Assembly: GCA_947631285.1 (NCBI GenBank)
Contig: CANRKS010000002.1
Span: 1 to 43,111 of the forward strand
DNA from: an uncultured Bacilli bacterium
GTDB taxonomy: Bacteria; Bacillota_I; Bacilli_A; RF39; UBA660
Reading direction: 5' to 3'
DNA: 43,111 nt
Part shown: piece by piece, positions 1,798 to 42,380 of the stretch
How the letters are laid out: each line of letters begins with the position of its first letter
Numbering within the stretch: the first letter of the stretch is position 1
The notes under the pieces: generated by a model
The model's database searches: none
What the model was told of the DNA's origin: nothing
What the model saw: only the letters and a program-made list of their open reading frames with translations
Program-made: the position numbers and the translations under genes

Positions 1798-2184
1798 TTA
1801 AGCTTCACATAAATTATTAAGAAGTGATTCATCTTTATCATCTTCTTCTTTTATAGCATCTTTCTTTTTAACTGATGATAAGAAGGTTACTCTTTCGGCG
1901 ATTACATCAGTTACATAGTGAGTTTTTTCATTTTCATCAAGATATTTACTTGTTTGCAGACGGCCTTTAACACCAATGACATCCCCAACATGACAATATT
2001 CAGTCGTGGTGGAGGCAATACTATTCCATAGAATGCAACGAACAAAATCTGTTTCATAAATACCATCAGCATTTTTAAAATTACGATTAACCGCTAAAAT
2101 GACCGTGGTTACTTTTTTATTGTTTTCAATAATTGAAATCTCCGGATTTTGAGTTAGACGACCTACTAATATAACATTATTCAT
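1798..2184 (-). CDS. ssb: single-stranded DNA-binding protein, short form (128 aa)
   Basis: OB-fold SSB pattern: MNNVILVGRLTQNPE, FVRCILWN, GDVIGVKGRLQTSKY, VIAERVTFL. The acidic C-terminal region lacks the terminal DDD(I/L)PF-type tip. Confidence 0.85.
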   Translation of the reverse strand: MNNVILVGRLTQNPEISIIENNKKVTTVILAVNRNFKNADGIYETDFVRCILWNSIASTTTEYCHVGDVIGVKGRLQTSKYLDENEKTHYVTDVIAERVTFLSSVKKKDAIKEEDDKDESLLNNLCEA

Positions 2185-2306
2185 TATTTTCCTCCTTTCT
2201 TAAAAAAATACATTAACATAAAATCTGGGATTTACCAAACTGCCATTTATCTATTATTTTGGTTTAAAAAAAGGTTAAAAAAGGATTCTTTAACTTGGTT
2301 ATTGCC

Positions 2307-2338
2307 AAAAAAATTACCAATTATTTAATAATTGGTAA
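2307..2338 (-). terminator. rho-independent terminator after sufB
   Basis: Perfect 10-bp stem TTACCAATTA (2314-2323) / TAATTGGTAA (2329-2338) with a 5-nt loop. On the minus strand it is followed by T7 (complement of A-run 2307-2313). Confidence 0.65.
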
Positions 2339-2349
2339 AAAACAATTTT

Positions 2350-3654
2350 TTAATCTTTAATTAATCTATTTAACTCTACAGCATATTCCATTGGTAATTC
2401 TTTTTTAAAATCGGCAATAAATCCCAATACCAATAATTCTTTACATTTATCTTCACTTAAGCCTTTACTCATCAAATAATTTAGTTTATCTTCACTTACT
2501 TTAGAAATGGTGGCTTCGTGTTCTAATGTACTACTTTCATTTTCTAAAATGTTTTTAGGGTATGTATTACTACTAGATATTCCATCTAATATTAAGGTAT
2601 CACATTTAACCTTAGCTAATGCTCCGATTGCAGAAGGAGTAATTTTAACTAAACCACGGTAATTACTTATTCCCCCATCTTCAGCTATACTCTTACTAAT
2701 TATGTTGCTTTTAGTATTTTTACCTATATGAATCATTTTGGCTCCAGCATCCAAGGCTTGTCCTTTTTTAGCATACGCAATTGATAAACTATTACCTACC
2801 GCATTATCGCCTTGTAAAATACAGCTCGGATATTTCATTGTTATTTTACTACCAATGTTACCATCAACCCATTCCATAATGCCATTCGAATCTACAACTG
2901 CTCTTTTCGTAACTAAATTATAAACATCCGTTGACCAGTTTTGAATAGTAGAATAACGACATCTAGCATTTTTACCAACATATATTTCTACAACACCAGC
3001 ATGCAGAGAAGACTCTGAATAACTTTTGGCTGTACATCCTTCAATGTATTCCAAACTACTATCATCATCAACGATAATAATCGTTCTTTCAAATTGGCCT
3101 AAAGATTCACTATCAATGCGAAAATAGCTTTGAAGAGGACGATCTAAATGCGTATGGGGAGGAATATAAATAAAAGATCCCCCACTCCATAAAGCTCCAT
3201 TTAAAGCCGTGTATTTGTTTTCGGCATAATTTACTAAATGGTTAAAATATTTATAAAAAAGATCAGGATATTTTTTTAAAGCATCATCGGTACTCATAAA
3301 AATTATCTCTTTATCCGTTTTATTGTGATGATAGACTACTTCACTTTCGTATTGATTAGACACACCATCTAAATATTTTTCTTCAGCCTCAATTACCCCT
3401 AAAGATTGAAAAGTATTTTTGATATCATGATCAACTTGATCCCATTTATCAGTAACGGGCTTTTCATTACTTTTATAATAATTAATATGGTCAAAATCAA
3501 GATCAATTTTCGGTCCAAAAGTAGGATTATCTAATTTTAAAAACATTTGAAAAGACTTAAGTCTAAACTCAAGCATCTTTTTATCTTCACCCTTTTTACG
3601 GGATAGCCAAACAATAAAATCTTGATCTAATTTTTTTTCCATATTTAACTCCAT
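2350..3654 (-). CDS. sufB: Fe-S cluster assembly scaffold protein SufB
   Basis: SufB hallmarks: FERTIIIVDDDSSLEYIEGCTA, RCRYSTIQNW, NLVTKRA, KMIHIGKNTKSNIISKSI, YRGLVKI, CDTLILD, EHEATISKVSEDKLNYLMSKGLSE. Confidence 0.9.
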   Translation of the reverse strand: MELNMEKKLDQDFIVWLSRKKGEDKKMLEFRLKSFQMFLKLDNPTFGPKIDLDFDHINYYKSNEKPVTDKWDQVDHDIKNTFQSLGVIEAEEKYLDGVSNQYESEVVYHHNKTDKEIIFMSTDDALKKYPDLFYKYFNHLVNYAENKYTALNGALWSGGSFIYIPPHTHLDRPLQSYFRIDSESLGQFERTIIIVDDDSSLEYIEGCTAKSYSESSLHAGVVEIYVGKNARCRYSTIQNWSTDVYNLVTKRAVVDSNGIMEWVDGNIGSKITMKYPSCILQGDNAVGNSLSIAYAKKGQALDAGAKMIHIGKNTKSNIISKSIAEDGGISNYRGLVKITPSAIGALAKVKCDTLILDGISSSNTYPKNILENESSTLEHEATISKVSEDKLNYLMSKGLSEDKCKELLVLGFIADFKKELPMEYAVELNRLIKD

Positions 3655-3737
3655 TACTTATAATACAATAAAATGATTTTAAAAACAATTGTATTTTAAG
3701 TAATCGCGCGGTAAAATATTTATAATAGGTGGATGGT

Positions 3738-4352
3738 ATGGATAATGAACGTAGTCTAAATAATTTAAAAAAGATTTTTCCTAATCTACAATATTTTTAT
3801 CTTGCTAATAATATTCTAACATTAAATTATAATGGCCATTTTGAAATGCCTTTAATATCTACCAATTTATCTTTATTAAATCCTAACCTTTATTATTTAA
3901 AACCTAATGAAATCTTTCAAGTAATCTATGTTTTAGAGCTTTTATATAAAAACTCTCTTTCCGAAAAAGAAGCAAGTTTTATTTTAGATTTTACAAATAT
4001 GTATTTAAATTTAAATGATTTAATAAAAAGTGGAACTTTAAAAAATGAAGAAGCGCGAGTTTGGTGTTTAGGCATTCCGATCGTTAAATCTTATGAAAAT
4101 ATATTTGTTAATAATCCAGCCAGTAAAATAATTGCTGAAGTAGTCAATAATCATGAAGATGAAATTATAAGTGGTAAAAACAAACAACCAAGATTAGTTA
4201 GAACTAATGATTCTGTCGTTAATTTTATGCCGGCGGAACCAGATTTAAATCTTATAGATTATGGCAAAGCTGGTTTTACCACTCTTCTTTTAATCGGCGG
4301 GGCTATTGTCTTTTCTGTTATCTATGTAACTTATTTTATCATTGGTCATTAA
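3738..4352 (+). CDS. hypothetical tail-anchored membrane protein
   Basis: ATG at 3738 follows AGGTGGA (3727-3733). The ORF-track start at 3729 is an in-frame GTG lying inside that SD. One C-terminal TM (FTTLLLIGGAIVFSVIYVTYFII). No recognisable domain. Confidence 0.55.
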   Translation: MDNERSLNNLKKIFPNLQYFYLANNILTLNYNGHFEMPLISTNLSLLNPNLYYLKPNEIFQVIYVLELLYKNSLSEKEASFILDFTNMYLNLNDLIKSGTLKNEEARVWCLGIPIVKSYENIFVNNPASKIIAEVVNNHEDEIISGKNKQPRLVRTNDSVVNFMPAEPDLNLIDYGKAGFTTLLLIGGAIVFSVIYVTYFIIGH

Positions 4353-4408
4353 TATTTGCTTTATAGATTAAATAATGGTATTATATATCCCACTTAAAGG
4401 GGGATATT

Positions 4409-4822
4409 ATGTTAAACGAAGAATATTTTATCGGGGAATCAAGTTATTCTAAAATGGATAATAAAAATAGAATTTGGCTTCCCAAATTTGCTTATAAACC
4501 TATTCAAGATACTAATGGTGAAGTTGCTCTTTGCCAAATTAATTTAGAATTAAGAGTTTATTTAGCTAATACTTATCAAACAATTTTAAATCATTATGAA
4601 AAAATCTTAAATGAAGCCAATTTAACTTATGAAGAATATACCAGAATTGCTTTTAAAATAGCAGAAATATGTGCCAGTTTAGATGATGTTATAAAGGTTG
4701 ATAATAAACATCGCCTTCTTATTCCTAACATGCTTATGACCCAAAACAATTGGCAAAATACTGATTCTTTTCGAATTAAAGGCTACGGAAAATATTTAAG
4801 TATCACCAAAAATAATAATTAA
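4409..4822 (+). CDS. MraZ-like protein (duplicated SpoVT/AbrB-type half-domains), outside any dcw context
   Basis: 137 aa, the usual MraZ size. Two DxxxR motifs in MraZ-like context: SKMDNKNRIWLPKF (res 15-28) and IKVDNKHRLLIPNML (res 96-110). AAGGGGGA SD 5 nt before the ATG. Confidence 0.55.
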   Translation: MLNEEYFIGESSYSKMDNKNRIWLPKFAYKPIQDTNGEVALCQINLELRVYLANTYQTILNHYEKILNEANLTYEEYTRIAFKIAEICASLDDVIKVDNKHRLLIPNMLMTQNNWQNTDSFRIKGYGKYLSITKNNN

Positions 4823-4827
4823 TCGTT

Positions 4828-4855
4828 AAAAAAATCCCCTTGAGGGAATTTTTTT
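4828..4855. terminator. bidirectional terminator between convergent genes
   Basis: A7-TCCC-CTTGA-GGGA-A-T7. The short GC stem is flanked by complementary A and T runs and overlaps the stop of the VirB4 ATPase gene. Confidence 0.5.
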
Positions 4856-6638
4856 AACCTACACTTGTTATGCCAAAAGAATCTAATTCTTCTTGCGTAA
4901 CTACAACATTTATTCTCATTCTTCTATTACCACATATAAATAAGCCTTGACCTTGAGGATAGAATTTAATACCTTCTTTTTCGCTTTCATTTAAGTCAAT
5001 TAATTGGGCTAAATCCTCTACAGCTTGTTTTCTTAATCCCATTATTAAATAATAAGAAGCATTGTCAAAAATAGCTTTTCCATGTTGAATAATAGATGGA
5101 GCCGCAAAATCAGTTGGTTGTTGCGTAATAATTAGAGTACCAGTGTTATATTTACGACTTCTTCTTTGAATTTGCGCTAAAAATTCAGCTCCCAATTCAT
5201 TATGAGATTGAAGTAATACATGAGCTTCATCTACCATCATAATCGTATTAACATCTTTATCTAAGCATAAGCCCCAAGCATATTTCAAAATATTAAAGAA
5301 TAAAGCATTTTTAATATTTTCATCACTATTCATTAATTCTTTTATATTGAATACAATGAAATCACTATTAATTTTTAATGATGTATGACCAGTAAAATAG
5401 TATCTTAACTCTTTTACTAAAGGTCTTACTTTTAATTCAAGTCTTTCCATAACATCTCTTTCATGGGTAGCATCAACCATTGATAAAAGACGTCCTTGAA
5501 TTGTCGCATATACATCATCAAAAGTTGGATACATATCACTAGTTAATTTAGTATAGTCAGTATTATAATCGATCCGATATCTCTTATAAGTATCTTGTAA
5601 AACTTCGCTAAATAAAGTTAAAACATCTTCTTCAATAGAAGGACTATAATATTTCATAAAGGCTCTAACTTGTTGAAGAGTTCTAGTTAAAACTGTATAT
5701 CCTAGCCCTTGAGCAATTTCTTCATCATCAACATCAACCACTATTTCTAAAGGATTTATCATACCGAAGTCTCCGCCTTTACCTAAGTCTAAGAAATCTC
5801 CTCCTAAAGTTTTCGCCATTTCTTCAAGTTCACCCTCAGGATCAATAGCCACAATTTTGCAACCATTTCTAATGTGGGTTCTTAACAATAATTTAGCCGC
5901 GGTTGATTTTCCAGTTCCTGATGTACCAAGTAAAATCATATTGGCATTGTTTCGGTTACTTTCATTTCTAATTTGATATAAAAATTGATTGAATAAAACT
6001 ACTCCCCCAGAAAAGTCAACACCAAATAGGCAAGATAAGCCAGGATCTTTAATACTATCAAAAACATAAGGATACATTGCTGCAATGGTAATTGAAGGAA
6101 TAGGAGTACCTACTCTTTCTTCGATATCTTGTTTAGGGAAGATAGGAACAATACTTTTTAAAACTTTTTCTTGTTCAAACATTAAAGCTACTCCTCCCAT
6201 GCCTAAAGCATTTAAGTAACTTTTAACTTCCATCTTTTTCATATCTAATTCTTCTTTACTATTAGCTGTAAGCATTAAATGCATTTGGAAATCAAATATT
6301 CTGGCATCAGTCGCCGCCAACATACTAACAAATTGCTCTAAAGATTCATAATCTTGACGAATCTTTTCTTGCATTGTGTTATCTCTTTCTGATTGATATC
6401 TAGTTTTTAAATCGGCAACTTCTTTATTAATCATTTTTTGTAAGACAGAAAAAGGTATGGGAATATGTTTAATAACTAATTTAACCCCTGAAATATTTGT
6501 TATATCTGATAAATAACCTACATAAATATTTTTAGGAAAACTAACAATTGTAATAATTGTAGAATATTTTCCCCCAATTCTAAATTCAGTAGGTTTAAAC
6601 TCCATCCCTTTGGGAGCAATTTCACTTTTTATATTCAT
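4854..6638 (-). CDS. VirB4-family T4SS ATPase, middle plus C-terminal ATPase portion (594 aa)
   Basis: Walker A GTSGTGKST, Walker B IMMVDEAH, LIITQQPTDF. The N-terminal stretch IAPKGMEFKPTEFRIGGKYSTIITIVSFPKNI resembles the central region of Gram-positive VirB4 (TrsE/TcpF/PrgJ/ConE-type) proteins. The ATG overlaps the upstream stop (TAATG). Confidence 0.85.
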   Translation of the reverse strand: MNIKSEIAPKGMEFKPTEFRIGGKYSTIITIVSFPKNIYVGYLSDITNISGVKLVIKHIPIPFSVLQKMINKEVADLKTRYQSERDNTMQEKIRQDYESLEQFVSMLAATDARIFDFQMHLMLTANSKEELDMKKMEVKSYLNALGMGGVALMFEQEKVLKSIVPIFPKQDIEERVGTPIPSITIAAMYPYVFDSIKDPGLSCLFGVDFSGGVVLFNQFLYQIRNESNRNNANMILLGTSGTGKSTAAKLLLRTHIRNGCKIVAIDPEGELEEMAKTLGGDFLDLGKGGDFGMINPLEIVVDVDDEEIAQGLGYTVLTRTLQQVRAFMKYYSPSIEEDVLTLFSEVLQDTYKRYRIDYNTDYTKLTSDMYPTFDDVYATIQGRLLSMVDATHERDVMERLELKVRPLVKELRYYFTGHTSLKINSDFIVFNIKELMNSDENIKNALFFNILKYAWGLCLDKDVNTIMMVDEAHVLLQSHNELGAEFLAQIQRRSRKYNTGTLIITQQPTDFAAPSIIQHGKAIFDNASYYLIMGLRKQAVEDLAQLIDLNESEKEGIKFYPQGQGLFICGNRRMRINVVVTQEELDSFGITSVG

Positions 6639-7201
6639 TAGCTCATCACCGTCCCAAAATAAATCGTTTCGCCACCATTTAAAAGATTATCTAAAATAAC
6701 TCTTAAATCACTATTGCTAGTTTGACTAGATTGTAGTCCCGCACTGGCAAGGCCACTAATCATATTATGAAGTTTCTTTTGTAAAACTTCCAACTTCTTT
6801 TCTTGAAATATTAAATAATATTCAGTATCAACAACGTTATATTCAGCACTCATAAATTGATTAGCTTTATTTATGTCTTGTAAAATTAATTTTCTAATTT
6901 CATTATTAGGAGTATTATTATAAAGACGTTGAAGTTCAGCTAAATACAAATTAATATCAACTGGTCGATCAGCAATTATAAGCCAAAACTCATAATCTAT
7001 CGTATTATAAAAATTTCTTAAATTATAAATGACATTATCTTGCATTTGACTATCCATAATAAAGATATTTCTTGGATGAACTTTTACTCCCGTTACATAG
7101 TATCCACTTTCAAGCTGAATCATTCCATTCATTATTTGTTTAACTGGTAACCAAGAGTTAGTAAATTTAGCATTATTTGTCGTTACTACTGATTCCTTCA
7201 T
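6638..7201 (-). CDS. VirB4 N-terminal domain encoded as a separate ORF (187 aa)
   Basis: LPVKQIMNGMIQLESGYYVTGVKVHPRNIFIMDSQMQDNVIYNLRNFYNTIDYEFWLIIADRPVDIN resembles the extreme N-terminus of Gram-positive VirB4 ATPases. 187+594 = 781 aa, about the length of a single-chain VirB4. GGATGGAG SD. Confidence 0.65.
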   Translation of the reverse strand: MKESVVTTNNAKFTNSWLPVKQIMNGMIQLESGYYVTGVKVHPRNIFIMDSQMQDNVIYNLRNFYNTIDYEFWLIIADRPVDINLYLAELQRLYNNTPNNEIRKLILQDINKANQFMSAEYNVVDTEYYLIFQEKKLEVLQKKLHNMISGLASAGLQSSQTSNSDLRVILDNLLNGGETIYFGTVMS

Positions 7202-7496
7202 GAATACTCCATCCTTTCCAATAATATTGTCTCCTGTTAGTATAAAAATTAAAGATATTTGTTAAAAGCTGCAAAACATTGTGATAATGAGGGACCGGCA
7301 GAACCAAAAAAGTTGCAATTAAACCGGGAAGTAAAACTAATATTAGGATCAATAAGCTCATACTCCTAATAATAAGAAGCATCAAAAACGACCAACCAAC
7401 ACCAATGGCTAAAATAGTTAAGTCCAATTTAGTAAACCAGCCAACTATTAATAATGATTTCTTAGTATTAGCAGGAATCAAATAATTATCTTTCAC
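7173..7496 (-). CDS. VirB3/PrgI/TcpE-like small membrane protein
   Basis: 107 aa with two central TM helices. GTG start with AGGAGGA 8 nt upstream. It sits immediately upstream of the VirB4 N-domain ORF and overlaps it by 29 nt, the usual VirB3 position. Confidence 0.55.
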   Translation of the reverse strand: MKDNYLIPANTKKSLLIVGWFTKLDLTILAIGVGWSFLMLLIIRSMSLLILILVLLPGLIATFLVLPVPHYHNVLQLLTNIFNFYTNRRQYYWKGWSIHEGISSNDK

Positions 7497-7518
7497 CTTT
7501 TTATTCCTCCTTTAACTT

Positions 7519-8730
7519 TTAAATTCCGCATAAGTCAATATTTTTATTATGTACATATGTTAAAATATATTTTAATAATACTGGTAACATAAATATAATA
7601 ACACATAATACGAATCTTTTTATAACTTTTTTTGTTGCCTTAGTTAATGCTTCTTGATCACTAGAAGCAACTGCTCCAATAAAATCTATAACTGATAATA
7701 CGATTAATAATATAATAGCCACATATTTAATAACATTAAACGCTACTACTAAATAATAAGCTGGATCTCCAGGAGTTGATGGACTTCCTAATAAATCAGA
7801 ACAGGTTTTTATTTCCGGCATTGATAATTCAGTAGTATGAAGATTTCCAGAAACATCTACATCACCAGGTGCATCTGTAGCTGATTTATCACTTATATAG
7901 TAGGTACTATATGGTGTGGTAGCAGATACTTTGATGGTTAAATTTTCTGCTGATGCATATTTACCATTTCCTAACCAAATTTTATTTATTGATCCGCTAT
8001 AAATTTCATAACGGTCTAAATCTCTTGTAACTATTAATCCTTCATCTTCAGTTGAAGTATAAGCTCGATCCGCAATGATGCCAAGATATTTTTTAGTAAC
8101 TCCATTAGCTAAATATTCACCAACTTCAATCGTTACGACTTCGTTCCCATCACCATCTTCTACTCCAGCGCCCCCATAATTATCAACATTCTTAGTATAT
8201 TGTTGACATGAAGTTGCACAAGTCATATTACAACCAGCTTTAGTTGTACAACTACTACTATCAGTGCTTGATCCAGATTTCCATTTATAGGCATTACAAA
8301 ATCCACCCATATCAACACAATCGCTCGTTCTAAAATCTTCAACTCCAGATTGACTATCACTTAAAATATAAACATCACTAGGACATCTACCAAGATTTTG
8401 ATATTCTTGTAAATAAGTCATAATGGCATTATCTGTAAAATTAATATTATGGCCATTAAAGCTAATCCAATTATTTGTCCCATCAGCATTGATTAAAGTT
8501 TGCTTTCCAACTCCATTTAAAGAAACATAAGCTCCATTATAATCAGCTGATAAAACCAAACTAGTTATTCCTAAAGTATCTTCACCATTATTTTTATAAG
8601 TACAGCTCACTCCCTTATTTAAAAGATCGCCGTATTGTTCTTGAACATCAGACCAGTTGCCACATCCAGTAGCAAAAAGTACCATCGTAAATACTAATAA
8701 AAATATTTTTAAAAATCTAATGCGTTTCAT
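7519..8730 (-). CDS. Cys-rich exported lipoprotein with C-terminal VirB2/TrbC-pilin-like two-TM hairpin (P1)
   Basis: AGGAGG SD. Signal peptide with a lipobox-like LFATG-C. About 300-aa Ser/Thr/Gly/Asp-rich exported region; 12 Cys in the protein overall. C-terminus is TM, then loop DFIGAVASSDQEALTKATKKVIKRF, then TM. It shares this motif with the upstream paralog. Confidence 0.6.
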   Translation of the reverse strand: MKRIRFLKIFLLVFTMVLFATGCGNWSDVQEQYGDLLNKGVSCTYKNNGEDTLGITSLVLSADYNGAYVSLNGVGKQTLINADGTNNWISFNGHNINFTDNAIMTYLQEYQNLGRCPSDVYILSDSQSGVEDFRTSDCVDMGGFCNAYKWKSGSSTDSSSCTTKAGCNMTCATSCQQYTKNVDNYGGAGVEDGDGNEVVTIEVGEYLANGVTKKYLGIIADRAYTSTEDEGLIVTRDLDRYEIYSGSINKIWLGNGKYASAENLTIKVSATTPYSTYYISDKSATDAPGDVDVSGNLHTTELSMPEIKTCSDLLGSPSTPGDPAYYLVVAFNVIKYVAIILLIVLSVIDFIGAVASSDQEALTKATKKVIKRFVLCVIIFMLPVLLKYILTYVHNKNIDLCGI

Positions 8731-8756
8731 TAATGTACCTCCTTAACTGAATGAAA

Positions 8757-9698
8757 TTATTTTCGGCCAGCTCCTCCACCACCAGAAGTGCCTCCAAAGC
8801 CTTCACCATGTAAACTGCAATCATTAGATGGTGCTAATAAACAGTTTAAGCATGACTTATATTCTTCTTCTTTAACATATTCTTCACTATTAAGTTGCAA
8901 TTGAGAAATTAGTGCTTTCAATAAATTAGGAAGAACAATTACAATGATACCAGCAACTACTCTTCTAATTAATGTTCCAGTAGCTTTAGAAATTGCTTTT
9001 TCATCATTAGATGTTACAGCTTTTCCAAAATCGACCATTCCTAAAACAATGATTATAAGAGGAATAATATAAATGGCAAGCCATAATATTTTTCCAATTA
9101 AAATTACGGCATTTCTTACATTTTCATTTGCACATACATTGTTATATTGTAAATTTGGCGTAGATGTACTTGGCTTAAAATTATCCCCAGGCGCAGGAGT
9201 AAGAGTTCCGCTTCCTTGCTCTTCTTCATTATTTTCAGAAGAATTATTGCCTGAATTTCCATTAGAAGCCGTATTTATAGAACACGCAATAATATAATAT
9301 TCATTACCTTTAGTATCCTTACTATTATATAGTAAAAAATATTTAGCGGCAGAATCTTGGCAAGAAACATTAACACTACTATCTAATTCACCATTATTAA
9401 CAATGCTTCTACTGTATACACAACCCGTTACTGTTTTAGTTTCACTTGGAGTTGTAATTTTTACAGAAGCCATTTTTATAAAATAATCATTAGATGAACA
9501 GCTTTTAACACTACTAAATTGCAAATTTTTATTATCACTAGTTGCTGAGTATTCTACTGATCCACCACCATCAGATTCATAAGTTGCATTTGGACTTACA
9601 GCAGCCATAGGATTTTCTAACAAAAAAAACTCTATGAAAACCACTATTAAAGCATACAAAAACAGTCTTATCTTTTTGGCTTTTTTCATATTTATCAC
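8757..9698 (-). CDS. Cys-rich exported protein with C-terminal VirB2/TrbC-pilin-like two-TM hairpin (P2)
   Basis: Signal peptide (IRLFLYALIVVFIEFFLLENPMAA). Low-complexity N/S/G/E linker. C-terminal TM, then loop DFGKAVTSNDEKAISKATGTLIRRV, then TM, followed by a Cys- and Gly-rich tail. The start may be ATG 9689 rather than GTG 9698. Confidence 0.6.
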   Translation of the reverse strand: MINMKKAKKIRLFLYALIVVFIEFFLLENPMAAVSPNATYESDGGGSVEYSATSDNKNLQFSSVKSCSSNDYFIKMASVKITTPSETKTVTGCVYSRSIVNNGELDSSVNVSCQDSAAKYFLLYNSKDTKGNEYYIIACSINTASNGNSGNNSSENNEEEQGSGTLTPAPGDNFKPSTSTPNLQYNNVCANENVRNAVILIGKILWLAIYIIPLIIIVLGMVDFGKAVTSNDEKAISKATGTLIRRVVAGIIVIVLPNLLKALISQLQLNSEEYVKEEEYKSCLNCLLAPSNDCSLHGEGFGGTSGGGGAGRK

Positions 9699-9709
9699 AA
9701 CCTACTAGA

Positions 9710-9738
9710 ATTATAACATGTTTTTTAGATAAATAAAA
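9710..9738 (-). promoter_or_regulatory. candidate promoter of the minus-strand T4SS-like operon
   Basis: Extended -10 on the minus strand, TGtTATAAT (TATAAT = complement of 9710-9715), with a weak -35 TTTTAT 17 nt upstream. Confidence 0.4.
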
Positions 9739-9769
9739 TAAATTTAAAAAAGTTATTTAACAAAAATGC

Positions 9770-9800
9770 AATTTATTTCAAAATGGAATTTATTCCAAAA
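9770..9800 (+). repeat. two 14-nt direct repeats with 17-nt period in the divergent control region
   Basis: AATTTATTTCAAAA (9770-9783) and AATTTATTCCAAAA (9787-9800), 13/14 identical. They lie between the two candidate promoters. Confidence 0.5.
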
Positions 9801-9835
9801 AATATAGATAAAATGATGATAAATTTAAAATTTTA

Positions 9836-9873
9836 TGTTATACTTTTCCTGTGACATATCCTTAATATATAAT
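9836..9873 (+). promoter_or_regulatory. candidate promoter(s) of the VirB6-like gene
   Basis: Extended -10 TGtTATACT (9836-9844) and a second TATAAT (9868-9873), both upstream of the GGGGAGG SD and ATG 9899. Confidence 0.35.
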
Positions 9874-9898
9874 TTTTTTATTTAGGGGAGGTAGAAGT

Positions 9899-12517
9899 AT
9901 GTTTATTAATATTTTGAATATTCCATTTCCGTTTGAAAAACAAATTGTTTCATTTCTTTTGTGGATTGATTCAGTAGGATATAGTATTTTTAGCTATTTT
10001 TATAAAACTTTTATTAAATTAGCTCAACAAGAATTATTTCAAGCTGATGCATTTCAAAAGGTTTATGATAATTTATATTTAATTTTTGGCGTAATTGCTT
10101 TATTTATGGTTTCCTATATACTTTTAAAATCGATGGTTGACCCTGATAATAATCAAAGCAATAAACAATTAAGAGATATGGGGGTAAGATTTATTTTATG
10201 CCTTATTTTAACAATATTATTACCTACTATATTTGATTTTCTAATCGATGTTCAAAATGCCATCTTAGAAAGAAATGTTGTACCCAAAGCAATTCTTGAT
10301 TCACAGATCATTGTTCAGGTAGTCGATGAAAATGGAAACAATATTGGTAATGAACAATATATCGATCAAAATAATATTAATTTAACATCTGATCTATTAC
10401 AAATTAGATCCAATGAAATGGTAGCAACCATTATTGGAGGATTAATGTATCCTTTAAAAACCGATAAAGATGCTTTTGATGGTGAAAGAGCCGAGCCTCA
10501 TAAAGTAAATGGCGTATACCATTACTATGAATCTTGGAATAACGAAAATAGTAATAAAGAATGGACTACTGATGTTTCAGAATGGTGGGATGGCAGTGCC
10601 AAAACAGTAGCTATGAGTATTGGATGCGGTGTTGGTATTGCTGGAACTATACTTTTGACTGTTGCTACTGGTGGAGCTGCAGCTGCTGCTGGTTCAACGG
10701 CATTAGTCGTTGCTGGTTCTGCAGGAGCAACAGCCACTGTTGGAGGAGTATCCCTAATAAGCCTTCTCCTTAGTTGTATTGCCGGAGGAGGAATAGCCTT
10801 AAGTGGTGGTGAACTTGCAGCAACTATAAGTGCTCATGAATTTACTTGGACTAATGCTTTAGAGGCTATTACTACTTATGGTAATTTTTCTCAAATAACC
10901 TTATTTGCTCAAGACATTGTAGATGGTAGGTTCCATTATACACCTATTATTTCTACCATTGTAGTTGGCTTACTAGTTTATATGATTGTAAGCTTCTGCT
11001 TCGATGTAGTTGTAAGACAAGCTAAGTTAATATTTTATCAATTGCTTGGGCCTTTATGCTTTATGATGAGCGTTTTGCCAAGCAAAAAAGATCTCCTTAA
11101 AAATTGGTTTAAAGTTGTAGTAACTACTTGGCTAGAAATATTCATTCGAATTGCTGTTTTGTGTTTTGTCGTCTTACTAGTTGGTAATTTGAATTTAGAT
11201 AATTTAACTAGCATATTCCATCCGACAATATCGGCCTTTATCGTTTTAGGCATTATCTTATTTGCTAAACAAATTCCAAAATTATTTAAAGACTTAACAG
11301 GCCTTGATTCTGGTAATATGAAATTAAATTTAAAAGAAAAATTATCAGATAGTGGTGCGTATGCATTTGCTGGTGTAGCTCTTGGAGGAGCCAAAAGATT
11401 ATCAAGAGGCATAACTAGTGGTATTAAAAAGAATTATGAGCAAAAAGATGGAAAATGGCAACGTAAAAATGGCGTTAGTCTAGGAACTGTTATTAAATCT
11501 GGTGTTGCTGGTGGTTTCAGTGCTGTTCCAGGAACTGTTGCAACTCAAATTAACTCCGGACGAGCTGGATATAAAGCCAAAAGTTGGAAAGACATGATGT
11601 CTGGAGTTAATAATGCCGTATCTAAATCTGAAGCAACTAGTCAAAAATTCAGCAAATATATTAATGATAATGGAGGAACCGTTGGAGGTGTTACAAAAGC
11701 TCTTGGTAAAGATGCATTTGATTTATTCCTAGGATACATTGGATTTGAACCTGACTTCTCTGTTTTAAAAGAACAAAAAGAAGCTGTTGATGAAATTTCT
11801 AAAACTTTAAAAGCTATGAAAGCCGTTAGTGAAGATTATATTGATAAACATAAACATGAATTCTTTTCAGCAGGTGGAACAATAATAGATACAACTGGTA
11901 AACAAGTTGAAGTCACTAAAAATCTTATTGATGATTATCAAGAATGGGTTACGATGAACGAAAGGGCTGCGGAAGCAACTAAAAAAGGTAATACTGCTGC
12001 AGCTGCTCAATATACTCAATTAGCTCAAAAATTAGAACAAGCAGCTTTAAGCAATAATATTAGTTTTAAATCTTTTGCCAAAGATTATCAAAATAACCGT
12101 TTAGATATCATGGAAGCAAGAATTGAAGAATTGAAGAAAAATGGCGGTAGCGCTTATGACATTGCTGAAGCAACTAACGCATTTAACAAAGCGAGAAAAG
12201 ATTTAGTAGACAATTTCATAACCGATTCTCAAAAACATAAAGGATCAGAACAAGAAGCGAGTATCTTACGTGAAAACATTGGTATGTTAAATAAGCAATT
12301 AGAAGATTTAAGTACTTCGGCTGTTGTTAAAACATTCCATGACGGTGTTGAAGGCATTTTTGATGGTGTTACCGAAACCAGAGCTGATGTTAAAGATGCA
12401 ACTGATTTTGTTAAATCTTTAAAGAAAGCTACTGAAGTTACAGAAGCTAATATTAATAGACAATATAATGAACTTCAAAGAAGAAATGCGAAAAAGCCAG
12501 GAAATAAAAGTAATTAA
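9899..12517 (+). CDS. TcpH/PrgH/VirB6-TrbL-like polytopic membrane protein with long hydrophilic C-terminal extension (872 aa)
   Basis: About 460-aa multi-TM N-terminal domain, including a Gly/Ala-rich block (GCGVGIAGTILLTVATGGAAAAAGSTALVVAGSAGATATVGG). Then about 380 aa of Lys/Glu/Ala-rich, probably coiled-coil sequence. Size, layout and position next to VirB3/VirB4 genes fit Gram-positive VirB6 analogues. Confidence 0.55.
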   Translation: MFINILNIPFPFEKQIVSFLLWIDSVGYSIFSYFYKTFIKLAQQELFQADAFQKVYDNLYLIFGVIALFMVSYILLKSMVDPDNNQSNKQLRDMGVRFILCLILTILLPTIFDFLIDVQNAILERNVVPKAILDSQIIVQVVDENGNNIGNEQYIDQNNINLTSDLLQIRSNEMVATIIGGLMYPLKTDKDAFDGERAEPHKVNGVYHYYESWNNENSNKEWTTDVSEWWDGSAKTVAMSIGCGVGIAGTILLTVATGGAAAAAGSTALVVAGSAGATATVGGVSLISLLLSCIAGGGIALSGGELAATISAHEFTWTNALEAITTYGNFSQITLFAQDIVDGRFHYTPIISTIVVGLLVYMIVSFCFDVVVRQAKLIFYQLLGPLCFMMSVLPSKKDLLKNWFKVVVTTWLEIFIRIAVLCFVVLLVGNLNLDNLTSIFHPTISAFIVLGIILFAKQIPKLFKDLTGLDSGNMKLNLKEKLSDSGAYAFAGVALGGAKRLSRGITSGIKKNYEQKDGKWQRKNGVSLGTVIKSGVAGGFSAVPGTVATQINSGRAGYKAKSWKDMMSGVNNAVSKSEATSQKFSKYINDNGGTVGGVTKALGKDAFDLFLGYIGFEPDFSVLKEQKEAVDEISKTLKAMKAVSEDYIDKHKHEFFSAGGTIIDTTGKQVEVTKNLIDDYQEWVTMNERAAEATKKGNTAAAAQYTQLAQKLEQAALSNNISFKSFAKDYQNNRLDIMEARIEELKKNGGSAYDIAEATNAFNKARKDLVDNFITDSQKHKGSEQEASILRENIGMLNKQLEDLSTSAVVKTFHDGVEGIFDGVTETRADVKDATDFVKSLKKATEVTEANINRQYNELQRRNAKKPGNKSN

Positions 12518-12527
12518 GAGGTAAAAA

Positions 12528-12899
12528 ATGATAATAACATTTCTTGTAATTTATATAATAATTTTTTTAGGAGATTACTTCTTATTTAAAAGATTTAAAA
12601 TATTTATGATTAATGAATATGATTATTTATTAACCAGATTTAAATTAAAAGATAATGAGAAAGATCGTAAATTGGCAAAATTAATTTGTAGTTTACTTAA
12701 TTCATTAATTATTTCTTTAGTATCTACCTTTATCATTTATATAAAATTACCTCTTTATCTAAAATTTCCTTTAGCATTTATCTTATTAGTTGCGTTAATT
12801 TATAGTATTTATGGCCTTTATGGAAGTATACTAAGGAGGAAGCAAAATGAAAGAAAAAAAAGTAAAAGTAAAACAAAAAGACAACAATCAAAAAAATAA
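12528..12899 (+). CDS. small membrane protein with Lys/Arg-rich tail (123 aa)
   Basis: AAGAGGT SD 7 nt upstream. Three hydrophobic segments. Starts 10 nt after the VirB6-like stop. Confidence 0.5.
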   Translation: MIITFLVIYIIIFLGDYFLFKRFKIFMINEYDYLLTRFKLKDNEKDRKLAKLICSLLNSLIISLVSTFIIYIKLPLYLKFPLAFILLVALIYSIYGLYGSILRRKQNERKKSKSKTKRQQSKK

Positions 12900-13062
12900 T
12901 AATAAAGTTTACTTTATTCAAAGTTTATTGTTTTCTCTATTGTTTCTAGTAATATTAATTATGCGTTTAGAAATGACCTTTAGTTTAATCTTTTTCTTAA
13001 TTAGTATTGCGCTTACTATTATTTATGGTTACAAATATATTAATGATAATGATAATAAATAA
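12847..13062 (+). CDS. small two-TM membrane protein (71 aa)
   Basis: Strong AGGAGGA SD 6 nt before the ATG. Overlaps the previous ORF by 53 nt in the +1 frame. Followed by a terminator. Confidence 0.5.
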   Translation: MKEKKVKVKQKDNNQKNNNKVYFIQSLLFSLLFLVILIMRLEMTFSLIFFLISIALTIIYGYKYINDNDNK

Positions 13063-13083
13063 CCCCTATTCTGGGGTTTTTTT
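13061..13083 (+). terminator. rho-independent terminator ending the plus-strand T4SS-like unit
   Basis: AACCCC (13061-13066), loop TATTCT, GGGGTT (13073-13078), then T-run. Confidence 0.65.
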
Positions 13084-40326: not shown

Positions 40327-41436
40327 CTAACTCGTTTCTAACTTAGATGTAAGCTTAGCTGATACAGTATCTTCTTTACCATTTCTTACATAAGTAATTT
40401 TAATAGTATCACCAATTTTATGCTTATATAATTCATATCTTAGATAAGCAACATTACTAATACTAACATCATTAATCTTCGTAATAATATCGCCTACTTT
40501 TAATTTAGCTTTAGAAGCCACTGAATTTTCATAAACACTATTAATGATAACACCACTCGTAATATCTTCTGGAATATAACGACTATAAAGAGGATTACTT
40601 AAAGCATTAGTGACATTAACCATTTCAATACCTAAATATGGATATTCTGAAGCTTCTCCCTTTATAATAGCTTCGGCTTTTTCCACTACATTTTCAATTG
40701 GAATAGCAAATCCCATTCCTTCAACTCCTGTTGATTTTATTTTAGCTGATATTACGCCGATTACTTCACCATTAGAATTACATAATGGTCCACCTGAGTT
40801 ACCACTATTAACAGCAGCATCAGTTTGTAAAACATTAATGATAAAATCATTACTACTATTGTTAGATAAAGATACTGGAACTTGTCTTTCTTTACCAGAA
40901 ATTATTCCTCTTGTTACAGTCCAAGAATAGACATTATCTAAAGGTGCTCCCACTGTAAATGTTGTATCTCCCACTCTTAATGTTTCTGTTTTACCAATAG
41001 TTACAGCATCAATATTATCTTTAGCCTTTACTTCTAAAATAGCAATATCGGCATATTGATCACTTCCTAGTAATGTAGCTTCGGCTTCATCACCATCGGA
41101 ATAAGTAATTCGATAATTATCACCATCAGCAATAACATGGTGATTGGTAACAACATAGAATTTATCACCTTCACTTTTGTAAATAAAACCACTACCAAAA
41201 GCATATAAATCTTTTTTATCATAAGTTGAGACAATAACAACTGAATTGTAAACCTTCTCAACGGCATCAGCAATTCCCTCATCAGTAACTGTAACATCTC
41301 TTTCAATTTTAGTTACTGTTTCTTGAAATATAGCAGGAAATTTATACATTATTCCATACATTAAAAATATTCCTAAAGCAATTCCAAATAAAGTATAAAC
41401 AATTACTTTCGTTCTTCCTTCAGCTTTTTGTTTCAT
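40327..41436 (-). CDS. htrA: HtrA/DegP-family serine protease with PDZ domain
   Basis: Catalytic triad contexts TNHHV, DIAIL, GNSGGPL. N-terminal TM. C-terminal PDZ (KVGDIITKINDVSI). Confidence 0.9.
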   Translation of the reverse strand: MKQKAEGRTKVIVYTLFGIALGIFLMYGIMYKFPAIFQETVTKIERDVTVTDEGIADAVEKVYNSVVIVSTYDKKDLYAFGSGFIYKSEGDKFYVVTNHHVIADGDNYRITYSDGDEAEATLLGSDQYADIAILEVKAKDNIDAVTIGKTETLRVGDTTFTVGAPLDNVYSWTVTRGIISGKERQVPVSLSNNSSNDFIINVLQTDAAVNSGNSGGPLCNSNGEVIGVISAKIKSTGVEGMGFAIPIENVVEKAEAIIKGEASEYPYLGIEMVNVTNALSNPLYSRYIPEDITSGVIINSVYENSVASKAKLKVGDIITKINDVSISNVAYLRYELYKHKIGDTIKITYVRNGKEDTVSAKLTSKLETS

Positions 41437-42380
41437 TATTTTACCCTCACAATCTCTTTAAAATTAATAGGAAATCCCATTGTATCTAAGACATCCGTAA
41501 TCATTATTGATTCTAATTTTCCATCTAGAATATCTAGTTCATAACTTATCTCATTCATCATTAAATGAAAATCATCTTCTTTCAATACTTGTTTCAATAT
41601 TATTATAATCGCAAATAAGTCATTTACACCATAAACATATTCTCCTTCTTCATCTTTTTCAATATTTAGCAAATCATGATATTTAGTATGTTCAATCTTT
41701 TTATGAGTTTTATTATTAAAACACATATCTTCATGAGCACATAAATTTCGATAATTAGCTAAAATAGGAAAGTATAAAATTAAATTTCTAACTGGCACTC
41801 CATAGATATCAGCAATTTCTTCTTGATCTTCTTTTTGAAGGACAGAATATAACTCTCCCACAATGCCAAAAGATAAAACTTTAACGACAATCCATAGAGG
41901 AATATAACCATAGTTGACTATATAGTGACTAGTAGCGGCATGTTGCTTACCATTAACATTTATTTGCCTTTTCATTTTACGAAGCAAATCATTAATTTGT
42001 TTAGCTTTAGCATAATCATGATCAAAATTATCAGCGTTCAAATAATGTTGTTCTTTAAAACCATGATTTTTGCTCATTACATACGAAAGGATACTCTTTA
42101 GGTTATTTTCAACAATTAAAATATTTTTAAACAAAATATTTCTAAGTTGCCTATCAAAATTAAACATTCCGTATAATTCGCGAAAATTAGTCCCAGGAAT
42201 AAATTTTCTACTACCATCACTTTTTAGAAATAGATGCCGATAACCACTTAAAAAGAAATAATTTTCTCTTAAAAGAATTTCTTTGGCGCTTACTTCATCA
42301 TCTATTACGAGTCCCTTATGTCTTAGAAGTTCAATTTGTTCATCAAGATTTTTAAATGTCTTAGACCCCATATTATTCAC
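41436..42380 (-). CDS. Abi_2 (AbiD/AbiF-like) abortive-infection-family protein
   Basis: QIELLRHKGLVIDDE...ENYFFLSGYRHLF, YIPLWIVVKVLSFGIVGELY and NYRNLCAHEDMCFN match the pattern I associate with Abi_2-family proteins. The stop overlaps the htrA ATG (TAATG). Confidence 0.65.
   Translation of the reverse strand: MNNMGSKTFKNLDEQIELLRHKGLVIDDEVSAKEILLRENYFFLSGYRHLFLKSDGSRKFIPGTNFRELYGMFNFDRQLRNILFKNILIVENNLKSILSYVMSKNHGFKEQHYLNADNFDHDYAKAKQINDLLRKMKRQINVNGKQHAATSHYIVNYGYIPLWIVVKVLSFGIVGELYSVLQKEDQEEIADIYGVPVRNLILYFPILANYRNLCAHEDMCFNNKTHKKIEHTKYHDLLNIEKDEEGEYVYGVNDLFAIIIILKQVLKEDDFHLMMNEISYELDILDGKLESIMITDVLDTMGFPINFKEIVRVK

Follow-up and report, generated by a model that had tools for sequence, protein, structure and literature searches.

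The window, a stretch of 43,111 nt on contig CANRKS010000002.1 (GenBank assembly GCA_947631285.1) from an uncultured Bacilli bacterium of the RF39 lineage, contains two neighbouring genes that code for exported, cysteine (Cys)-rich proteins, P1 and P2, which share a C-terminal two-helix membrane hairpin and are considered here as candidate VirB2-like subunits of a small chromosomal type IV secretion system (T4SS). As originally predicted, genes for VirB3- and VirB4-like proteins lie directly downstream of the pair. P2, P1, the VirB3-like gene, a 187-aa open reading frame (ORF), and the VirB4 gene follow one another with spacings of 22-26 nt or with overlaps, and because of this tight packing and of the terminator-like hairpin after VirB4, the series can be read as one operon (Table 1).

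Both reading frames lie on the minus strand and have the lengths, Cys counts, and, for P1, the lipobox that the original prediction had described. P1 has 12 Cys residues (23, 43, 116, 138, 145, 161, 167, 171, 175, 310, 376, and 401) and P2 has eight (67, 93, 113, 139, 189, 283, 286, and 294); the public gene call of P2 (P0018) starts at an ATG at 9689, three codons downstream, and gives 310 aa. The N-terminus of P1, MKRIRFLKIFLLVFTMVLFATGC, is a lipobox of the PROSITE type, as judged by reading the sequence, in which a Cys (...VLFATG-C23) stands at position +1 after a basic and hydrophobic signal sequence. The lipobox is kept in the P1 orthologues P0002 (FLAGC) and P0012 (LVTGC), while most other proteins of the P1 hairpin subtype (type A, defined below) carry signal-peptidase-I-type signals instead. 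From this signature, P1 appears to be lipid-anchored at its N-terminus.

The two proteins are related through their hairpins, which align by BLASTP with 21 identities in 51 positions (E 5e-10), and no significant similarity was found by BLASTP beyond them, in keeping with the unrelated look that the original prediction had noted for the N-terminal regions. The ungapped hand alignment that first suggested the relationship was reproduced exactly, with 19 identities in 44 positions; the best of 200,000 composition-preserving shuffles gave 13 and none reached 19, which rules out chance similarity. Against the hairpin profile, P1 scores E 4.3e-37 and P2 scores E 3.6e-36.

Hydropathy places a signal peptide and two hydrophobic segments in each protein (residues 323-359 and 367-395 in P1, about 196-230 and 241-267 in P2), and charge counts give a net charge of +3 for the connecting loop of the hairpin and acidic or neutral outer flanks, bearing out the proposed pair of transmembrane helices joined by a basic loop. 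Because the N-terminal domains are exported, helix 1 would run inward, the loop would be cytoplasmic, and helix 2 would run outward, leaving the C-terminus outside. The AlphaFold2 (AF2) model of the P1 hairpin segment (103 residues; predicted local distance difference test score, pLDDT, 74) is a helical hairpin with helices at segment positions 23-56 and 59-100; in P1 numbering, AF2 helices are placed at H323-356 and H359-395. The predicted extracellular tail of P2 with its three Cys was likewise recovered after helix 2. A Gly-rich tail with a terminal [AS]GR[KHQ] motif (8760-8795, minus strand, in P2) occurs in seven of 245 family members with hairpins of both types (P2, P0004, P0023, P0026, P0070, P0178, and P0239) and could be a processing or sorting signal.

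The exported regions differ in how well they are conserved. In the N-proximal domain of P1, modelled by AF2 as a mixed alpha/beta fold with pLDDT 80-94, C116 is invariant and C43 and Y45 are nearly invariant across 17 type-A proteins, and 51 of 65 long type-A proteins have the C-x-Y ... C-P motif. Foldseek gave no match in the PDB for the complete P1 model (pLDDT 64), this domain included. Full-length P1 and P2 gave nothing significant against Pfam and NCBIfam, and neither collection has a match to the N-terminal domain of P2.

Table 1. Features of the locus that encodes P1 and P2, with their positions in the window.
Feature	Coordinates	Strand	Remarks
P2 gene, type-B hairpin protein, 313 aa	8757..9698	-	GTG start
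P2 variable exported N-domain (about aa 37-181)	9156..9590	-	4 Cys; preceded by a Sec-type signal peptide, aa 4-36
P2 hairpin module (aa 182-294)	8817..9155	-	NYNN-x-C, helix 1, basic loop DFGKAVTSNDEKAISKATGTLIRR, helix 2, Cys-containing tail
P2 C-terminal tail, predicted extracellular (aa 268-313, ~46 residues)	8760..8897	-	C283, C286, C294; Gly-rich end GGTSGGGGAGRK
P1 gene, type-A hairpin protein, 403 aa	7519..8730	-	In the ORF list; matches public gene call P0001 exactly
P1 N-proximal conserved domain (about aa 40-135)	8326..8613	-	Lies between C43-x-Y45 and C116-P
P1 variable Cys-rich middle region (aa 136-305)	7816..8325	-	AF2 pLDDT mostly <50
P1 hairpin module (aa 306-403)	7522..7815	-	C310-x2-LLGSP...PAYY, helix 1, basic loop, helix 2, C-terminal C401-G-I
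VirB3-like gene (107 aa)	7173..7496	-	Weak PrgI and TcpE matches, E 4e-3; NF045975 positions 2-96
VirB4 N-terminal part, separate 187-aa ORF	6638..7201	-	NF045975 positions 98-276, E 7e-15
VirB4 ATPase body (594 aa)	4854..6638	-	AAA_10, P-loop_TraG, CagE_TrbE_VirB; NF045975 positions 294-891, E 1.9e-102
Terminator-like hairpin at the operon end	4825..4858	-	15-pair stem and T run directly after the VirB4 stop codon
Polytopic membrane protein in VirB6 position, 872 aa	9899..12517	+	Divergent; ~7 hydrophobic segments and a ~400-aa hydrophilic C-terminal part
Two small membrane-protein ORFs (123 aa, 71 aa)	12528..13078	+	Downstream of the VirB6-like gene; bidirectional terminator at 13061-13078

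The hairpin defines a large protein family. Homologues of P1 and P2 have the C-terminal ~100 residues in common, at 40-60% identity, and their N-regions differ widely. In alignment A1, built from 22 hairpin modules, the Cys before helix 1 and the Cys after helix 2 are invariant (C10 and C101, corresponding to C310 and C401 of P1), and D49, S56, D58, K64, R72, and P83 are invariant or nearly so; 240 of 245 family sequences have Cys on both outer flanks. The A1 profile, run against 1.84 billion cluster representatives, retrieved 10,058 at E<=1e-3 and 6,110 at E<=1e-10. Among the 150 best matches, whose architecture proportions are biased because the profile to which they lie closest derives chiefly from long forms, 113 have a passenger at the N-terminus, 27 are minimal (signal peptide and hairpin), six carry a C-terminal passenger, and four carry both; passengers at either end fit a topology in which both ends of the hairpin are outside. 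With N-terminal passengers in 113 of these closest representatives, the fusion that the original prediction regarded as unusual turns out to be no oddity of this genome. Enzymes are found among the passengers, namely Peptidase_M15_4, NlpC/P60, a C39-like peptidase, and an alpha/beta hydrolase, and every family member is named 'hypothetical protein' in its source record.

Three subtypes of the module can be distinguished. Type A, to which P1 belongs, has C-x2-LLG-x-P...PAYY before helix 1 and a CGI end, and usually comes with the conserved N-proximal domain; in type B, the subtype of P2, helix 1 is preceded by NYNN-x-C and the tail contains C-x2-C; type C is a short form that lacks a signal peptide.

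The gene neighbourhoods of these homologues are the strongest evidence that P1 and P2 are T4SS subunits. A scan with one genome per species, in which the subtype alignments A3 and A6 were used and which is biased toward close relatives, yielded 25 loci from metagenome-assembled genomes (MAGs) labelled in the sequence records as uncultured gut Bacilli, 'Mycoplasma', 'Tenericutes', or Erysipelotrichaceae, from rabbit, goat, and human. In 14 of them, two to eight tandem hairpin genes are followed on the same strand by VirB6-like, VirB3, VirB4-N, and VirB4 genes; one further locus is truncated at the VirB6-like gene and another is a contig of only 2 kb. Locus L026, on a chromosome of 1.49 Mb, carries eight hairpin genes, including short, passenger-free forms. 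Six of eight further independent look-ups returned the same T4SS order, continued by genes for a hydrolase (SpoIID or M23), a lipoprotein, and a coupling protein similar to VirD4, and a metagenome scan added one more T4SS locus. The homologues are thus mostly VirB4-adjacent, the distribution on which the pilin-like assignment had been made to depend. Moreover, wherever type A is present, it is the final gene before VirB6/VirB3 (13 of 13 distinct loci).

Other genes recur around these arrays. In many related genomes (L011, L012, L013, L015, L018, L022, L026, L028, L029, L031, L032, and L049), a Tad-like operon runs into the hairpin array and the T4SS genes as one same-strand super-locus (for example, L013:941-9014); the operon comprises a giant protein of >1000 aa, DUF5411, an RcpC-like protein, a T2SSE ATPase, two membrane proteins, a pair of ~80-aa genes, and three more. 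L019-21, L024, L027, L051, and L052 lack the T4SS half. A gene for a TMEM164-family membrane protein, absent from the window, stands between the type-B and type-A genes in L010, L012, L013, L031, L049, and L050 (for example, L013:10336-11094). Beside the first hairpin gene of the T4SS locus in L033, a divergent gene (2052-2483, minus strand) codes for a thioredoxin-like/PedC-like protein, which fits the disulfide need of Cys-flanked hairpins and proves nothing.

The motor genes downstream of P1 have a distinctive arrangement. The three ORFs at 4854-7496 (minus strand) are colinear with the single NCBIfam model NF045975, which describes the fused VirB3-VirB4 ATPase of Mycoplasma integrative and conjugative elements (ICEs), and because all three map end to end onto this model, they can be seen as one VirB3-VirB4 protein split into three overlapping ORFs. 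The three-way split is kept across all related loci, and the VirB3-like gene adjoins VirB4 in every one of them. A 97%-identical orthologue of the 187-aa ORF has a precomputed TraC-like match (PF26593). On the other side of P2, the 872-aa polytopic protein is called VirB6-like by position and architecture only, with homologues whose genes separate the hairpin array from VirB3 in most related loci; the protein contains a Gly/Ala-rich stretch, where the local G+C content rises to 0.34 at 10-12 kb.

Comparison with the syntenic MAG locus L001, which has the same SufB and DHH flanks, reveals uneven divergence. Identity amounts to 97% for VirB4, 89% for VirB3, and 89% for SufB, falls to 60-63% for the hairpins and 56% for the VirB6-like protein, and reaches 33% for the N-region of P1 (aa 1-300) against its syntenic orthologue P0002. 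The N-domain of P2 cannot be aligned with that of its syntenic orthologue P0019, and their hairpins are 63% identical. L001 contains a 299-nt direct repeat (9588-9886 and 10786-11084; 97% identical), the two copies of which encode the hairpins at the 3' ends of tandem type-A genes with unrelated N-domains, and P0012 joins a P1-like N-domain to a type-B hairpin. Taken together, the identities with L001, the P0012 chimera, and the 299-nt cassette indicate that divergence or exchange is far faster in the exposed parts than in the cytoplasmic motor, and the pattern suggests a cassette-like exchange of N-domains. In another sample, P0004 combines the same hairpin as the L001 pair with a third N-domain.

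As to the identity of the hairpin, PF18895 (T4SS_pilin; profile length 71, curated gathering cut-off 26.6 bits) is the most frequent Pfam family, matching 17 of the 22 modules at E<=10 (best 3.4e-6) and 28 of 136 full-length proteins at E<=0.01 (best 4e-7). Three relatives exceed the cut-off over nearly the whole profile, namely P0056 (30.5 bits), P0232 (29.4 bits), and P0211 (28.8 bits), and P0056, a stand-alone protein of 141 aa, shares 39% identity with the P2 module across 113 aa (E 2e-31). By transitivity along these sequence matches, the hairpin is accepted as homologous to the PF18895 lineage. The suggested likeness to VirB2/TrbC pilins holds to this extent, through relatives that pass the PF18895 threshold, and fails for the classical VirB2, TrbC, and TraA pilins, to which no similarity was found; PF04956 did not appear in any of the Pfam scans, even at E values up to 10. 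The hairpin was also considered as a VirB3 paralogue and rejected, the hhalign probability between A1 and an alignment of 12 VirB3-like sequences (A5) being 0.64%.

P1 and P2 are probably VirB2-like subunits of a small chromosomal T4SS that display fast-diverging, swappable domains. The T4SS module would extend from 4825 to 13078 and consist of the hairpin genes, the VirB6-like gene, the VirB3-like gene, and the split VirB4. Both proteins would be exported by their signal peptides, that of P1 being of the lipoprotein type, and the C-terminal hairpin would hold each of them in the membrane with its ends facing outward and its basic loop in the cytoplasm, stapled by a probable disulfide bond between the invariant outer Cys. 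The hairpin would represent a divergent branch of the PF18895 lineage, whose members are pilins according to Pfam and are treated as VirB2-like in Patescibacteria, and it may be the part that the VirB6/VirB3/VirB4 machine recognises. The exported domains, in turn, would be the working ends, that is, rapidly evolving and exchangeable modules at the surface or in the wall zone for contact or adhesion, hydrolytic in some relatives. P1 would serve as the fixed, single-copy type-A subunit beside VirB6/VirB3, with its conserved N-proximal domain, and P2 as a type-B subunit of variable copy number.

A screen of window ORFs of >=90 aa with Pfam over the 43 kb detected no coupling protein (VirD4), relaxase, VirB1-type hydrolase, or VirB8. 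With coupling protein, relaxase, and hydrolase all missing, the most likely role of the locus is surface display or attachment, through a short stalk or ring and possibly a fibre, and not conjugation. A complete conjugative T4SS would include VirD4 and a relaxase, neither of which was found in the window; related loci carry VirD4 and a hydrolase after VirB4. In a more far-reaching version, which seems rather doubtful, small-genome gut Bacilli would keep a vertically inherited, relaxase-less T4SS, a kind described to date in Patescibacteria only, whose VirB4 extracts disulfide-stapled subunits to build a wall-crossing stalk or pilus with interchangeable heads. That the heads of such a structure are adhesins, or wall hydrolases in some relatives, and work in cell-to-cell attachment or uptake and not in plasmid transfer is to be regarded as equally tentative.

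Several observations weigh against the assignment of P1 and P2 to a T4SS as pilin-like subunits. In five of the 25 loci, two short hairpin genes end a Tad-like operon with no VirB4 in reach, and in four others, orphan hairpin genes lie among housekeeping genes, one of them beside a DUF87 ATPase; two of the eight further look-ups returned a Tad-like operon only, and a 113-aa orphan hairpin stands beside rpsO/pnp on 13 gut contigs in a dockerin-encoding genome. The modules of P1 (12.3 bits, E 0.18, positions 13-71 of 71) and P2 (10.8 bits, E 0.54, positions 8-69 of 71) themselves remain below the PF18895 cut-off, and the polymerisation of PF18895 proteins is itself only predicted. The hhalign probability between A1 and the Agrobacterium tumefaciens VirB2, used as a single sequence confirmed against PDB 8cue/8exh and not as a family profile, is 0.08%. 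A search of PDB sequences with the hairpin profile retrieved no pilin and a spurious match to rhodopsin TM5-6 at E 3e-3, whereas Foldseek with the AF2 hairpin model found nothing in the PDB at E<=1e-3, its best-ranked entries being generic helical hairpins such as that of HtrII, a fold search being uninformative for a bare helical hairpin. Transmembrane hairpins draw spurious matches in Pfam scans as well, where DUF1980 also recurs. Furthermore, the VirB6-position protein has no match among Pfam or NCBIfam models, and only long hairpin forms are encoded in the window. The geometry of the F- and T-pilus, known from published structures, raises a steric doubt. Because P1 and P2 are both long forms and P1 would be tethered by its lipobox, a homopolymeric VirB2-type fibre is sterically doubtful here; a true fibre, unsupported in this window, is possible.

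The orphan hairpin protein encoded at L036:5896-6237 (plus strand; 113 aa) consists of a signal peptide, a Cys, the hairpin, and a second Cys. Near it, L036:8569-10584 (minus strand) codes for a 671-aa protein in which a type IV pilin N-methylation motif is fused to BspA-type leucine-rich repeats, another architecture of pilin anchor plus adhesin.

The foremost rival explanation is a true pilus of the conjugative type in a Gram-positive host, in which VirB4 would extract the hairpins, a VirB2-type fibre would polymerise from them, and the passengers would decorate its shaft or tip. In published pilus structures, the pilin termini face outward, as both ends of the present hairpin are predicted to do. 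This similarity, together with the link to PF18895, the classical order with pilin genes ahead of virB3-virB4, and the arrays of up to eight divergent paralogues with short passenger-free forms in related genomes (L026), favours a fibre, and the arrays resemble both the VirB2-like arrays of Patescibacteria (PMC12102498) and the amplified pilin genes of the coupling-protein-less Trw system of Bartonella (PMC12857230). However, the window encodes no short form and no detected hydrolase to breach the wall, P1 bears a lipobox, the hairpins show no similarity to structurally proven pilins, and the helical lattice of a VirB2-type fibre would be crowded if each subunit bore a passenger of 170-300 residues, so that a true pilus is judged unlikely.

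Two other readings, a generic anchor and an accessory of the Tad-like system, are weakened because of the invariant loop residues, the strict gene order, the hairpin-only members, and the lack of Tad genes near the locus. The hairpin could be a stable membrane anchor, stapled by its disulfide, that gut Firmicutes use for exported proteins, its proximity to T4SS genes being due to shared regulation or history. Orphans among housekeeping genes, of the type seen in L005, L016, L023, and L036, would be expected of such an anchor, as would diverse passengers with enzymes among them, and the Pfam and fold evidence for a pilin identity of P1 and P2 is weak. A passive anchor, however, has no need of the invariant or near-invariant D49, S56, D58, K64, and R72 in the predicted cytoplasmic loop, and hairpin-only members (27 of the 150 best matches) would anchor nothing; moreover, the VirB6/VirB3/VirB4 order is strict across genomes in which VirB4 is only 63-97% identical, and type A always stands directly ahead of VirB6/VirB3, which makes the anchor reading distinctly improbable. 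That the hairpins belong functionally to the preceding Tad-like (type IVc) pilus system and not to the T4SS is more improbable by far: although in at least 16 loci the first hairpin gene follows immediately on the end of a Tad-like operon, and in seven of these loci no VirB6, VirB3, or VirB4 comes after it, there is no Tad-like gene in the window, its closest relatives (L001/L004 and L008, for each of which at least 6 kb of upstream sequence was covered) share with it VirB6/VirB3/VirB4 genes and no Tad-like gene nearby, Tad-only loci keep the short signal-peptide-less type C and one other short form and never type A, and the hairpin has two helices, not the single N-terminal helix of Flp pilins, its TadE and Tad matches in Pfam being weak (E 0.002-0.3, over ~20 residues of helix 1).

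The preferred reading, VirB2-like subunits with exchangeable exported domains, can be set against known systems. In the T-pilin and TrbC, head-to-tail cyclisation covalently closes the hairpin, and the predicted disulfide of the P1 and P2 hairpins would be an analogue of this closure. The classical VirB2/TrbC/TraA pilins (PF04956; 8cue, 8exh) resemble P1 and P2 in having a signal peptide, two helices, a basic loop, and a position upstream of virB3-virB4; they differ in that their mature forms are passenger-free and 70-100 aa long and polymerisation is proven, while P1 has 403 aa, P2 has 310-313 aa, and a fibre is only conjectured for them. Closer in several respects are the arrays of Patescibacteria and the PF18895 proteins (PMC12102498; PMC12857230), which share the ~70-residue two-helix hairpin with a short polar loop, the tandem divergent paralogues near virB4, the monoderm host, and a chromosomal, relaxase-less T4SS of the MPF-FATA type. 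The present hosts, in contrast, are uncultured gut Bacilli, P1 and P2 stay under the PF18895 threshold, and the family mostly carries large passengers, has invariant outer-flank Cys, and is often joined to Tad-like operons, the Patescibacteria arrays being compared here by description and not by sequence.

Since coupling protein, relaxase, and hydrolase are all missing from the locus, its nearest functional analogue would be a coupling-protein-less system such as Bartonella Trw (PMC12857230), which also has multiple sequence-variable surface subunits and a proposed role in host-specific adhesion. Unlike the present system, Trw is Gram-negative, has canonical VirB2 and VirB5, and varies through whole-gene paralogues and not through passengers swapped on a constant hairpin. 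The motor points to the CDS13-CDS17 region of Mycoplasma ICEs (PMC12857230; NF045975), as the VirB4 is closest to the Mbov_0397 family (E 1.9e-102), and in both cases small two-helix membrane proteins and a surface lipoprotein precede VirB6-like and VirB4 genes, and neither VirB1 nor VirB8 is present. The differences are that VirB3-VirB4 is encoded here by three ORFs and not fused, that it scores 343 bits against a family cut-off of 590, that the locus lies in the chromosome, is syntenic from one species to another, and has neither an integrase nor a relaxase in its vicinity, and that P1, P2, and the VirB6-like protein have no NCBIfam match. Lastly, TcpD/TcpE, ConC, and PrgI (VirB3-like) are also two-helix membrane proteins encoded just ahead of virB4, but the locus has its own VirB3/PrgI/TcpE-like gene (7173-7496), which is unrelated to the hairpin profile.

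According to a review of December 2025, VirB2 and VirB5 are absent from Gram-positive T4SSs, with Patescibacteria as the sole recent exception (PMC12857230). In the literature searched, VirB2-like pilins in RF39, Tenericutes, or Bacillota are unreported beyond the work on Patescibacteria, and no report was found of hairpin arrays or pilin-module fusions in Bacilli. The kind of module is known already (PF18895), and what is new is the passenger-bearing architecture, the putative Cys staple, and the Bacilli host, within a very large, unannotated PF18895-related hairpin family of uncultured gut Bacilli whose members stand in arrays ahead of VirB6-like, VirB3, and VirB4 genes. If these proteins are true T4SS surface subunits, the 'pilin array' type of T4SS extends past Patescibacteria, a way is suggested in which a monoderm machine could present adhesins or wall hydrolases, and the hairpin, the Cys pair, and the type-A subunit by VirB6 offer a handle on the coupling-protein-less chromosomal T4SSs of reduced-genome gut bacteria. 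Were the stalk or pilus version true, a modular, domain-bearing pilus of the conjugative type would be known for the first time from a Gram-positive lineage; and if the hairpin is a membrane anchor only, the family would still rank among the larger uncharacterised exported-protein families of the gut microbiome.

The rest of the 43-kb window is ordinary chromosome, with genes for SufB, SSB, a DHH/CBS phosphatase, an LCP protein with a PASTA domain, a sulfatase-family protein, PFOR, enolase, ArgRS, FemAB, a sortase, and HtrA, and with peptidoglycan and teichoic-acid genes. A mobile-element origin in this lineage was rejected on the grounds that the synteny of the SufB and DHH flanks extends across species and that the 43 kb are free of integrase and relaxase genes. 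At the sensitivity of tblastn, the P2 module has no match in 72,556 plasmid records, so the family is absent from sequenced plasmids at that level. In the divergent intergenic region, a promoter scan counted 65 sites against 54.7 +/- 8.1 in shuffled sequence, which is not above expectation, and no promoter is claimed. Downstream of the VirB6-like gene, the 123-aa ORF has 80% identity in the syntenic locus L001. Just past the VirB4 terminator (3729-4822, plus strand) lie a 207-aa gene with no family match and a 137-aa gene with a weak MraZ/AbrB-like match, both in the same position in L001 and the former also ahead of SufB in L007 and L009; they may regulate the locus or just happen to lie next to it. 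An Abi_2 (abortive-infection-like) gene at 41436-42380 (minus strand) stands among housekeeping genes and is unrelated to the hairpin proteins.

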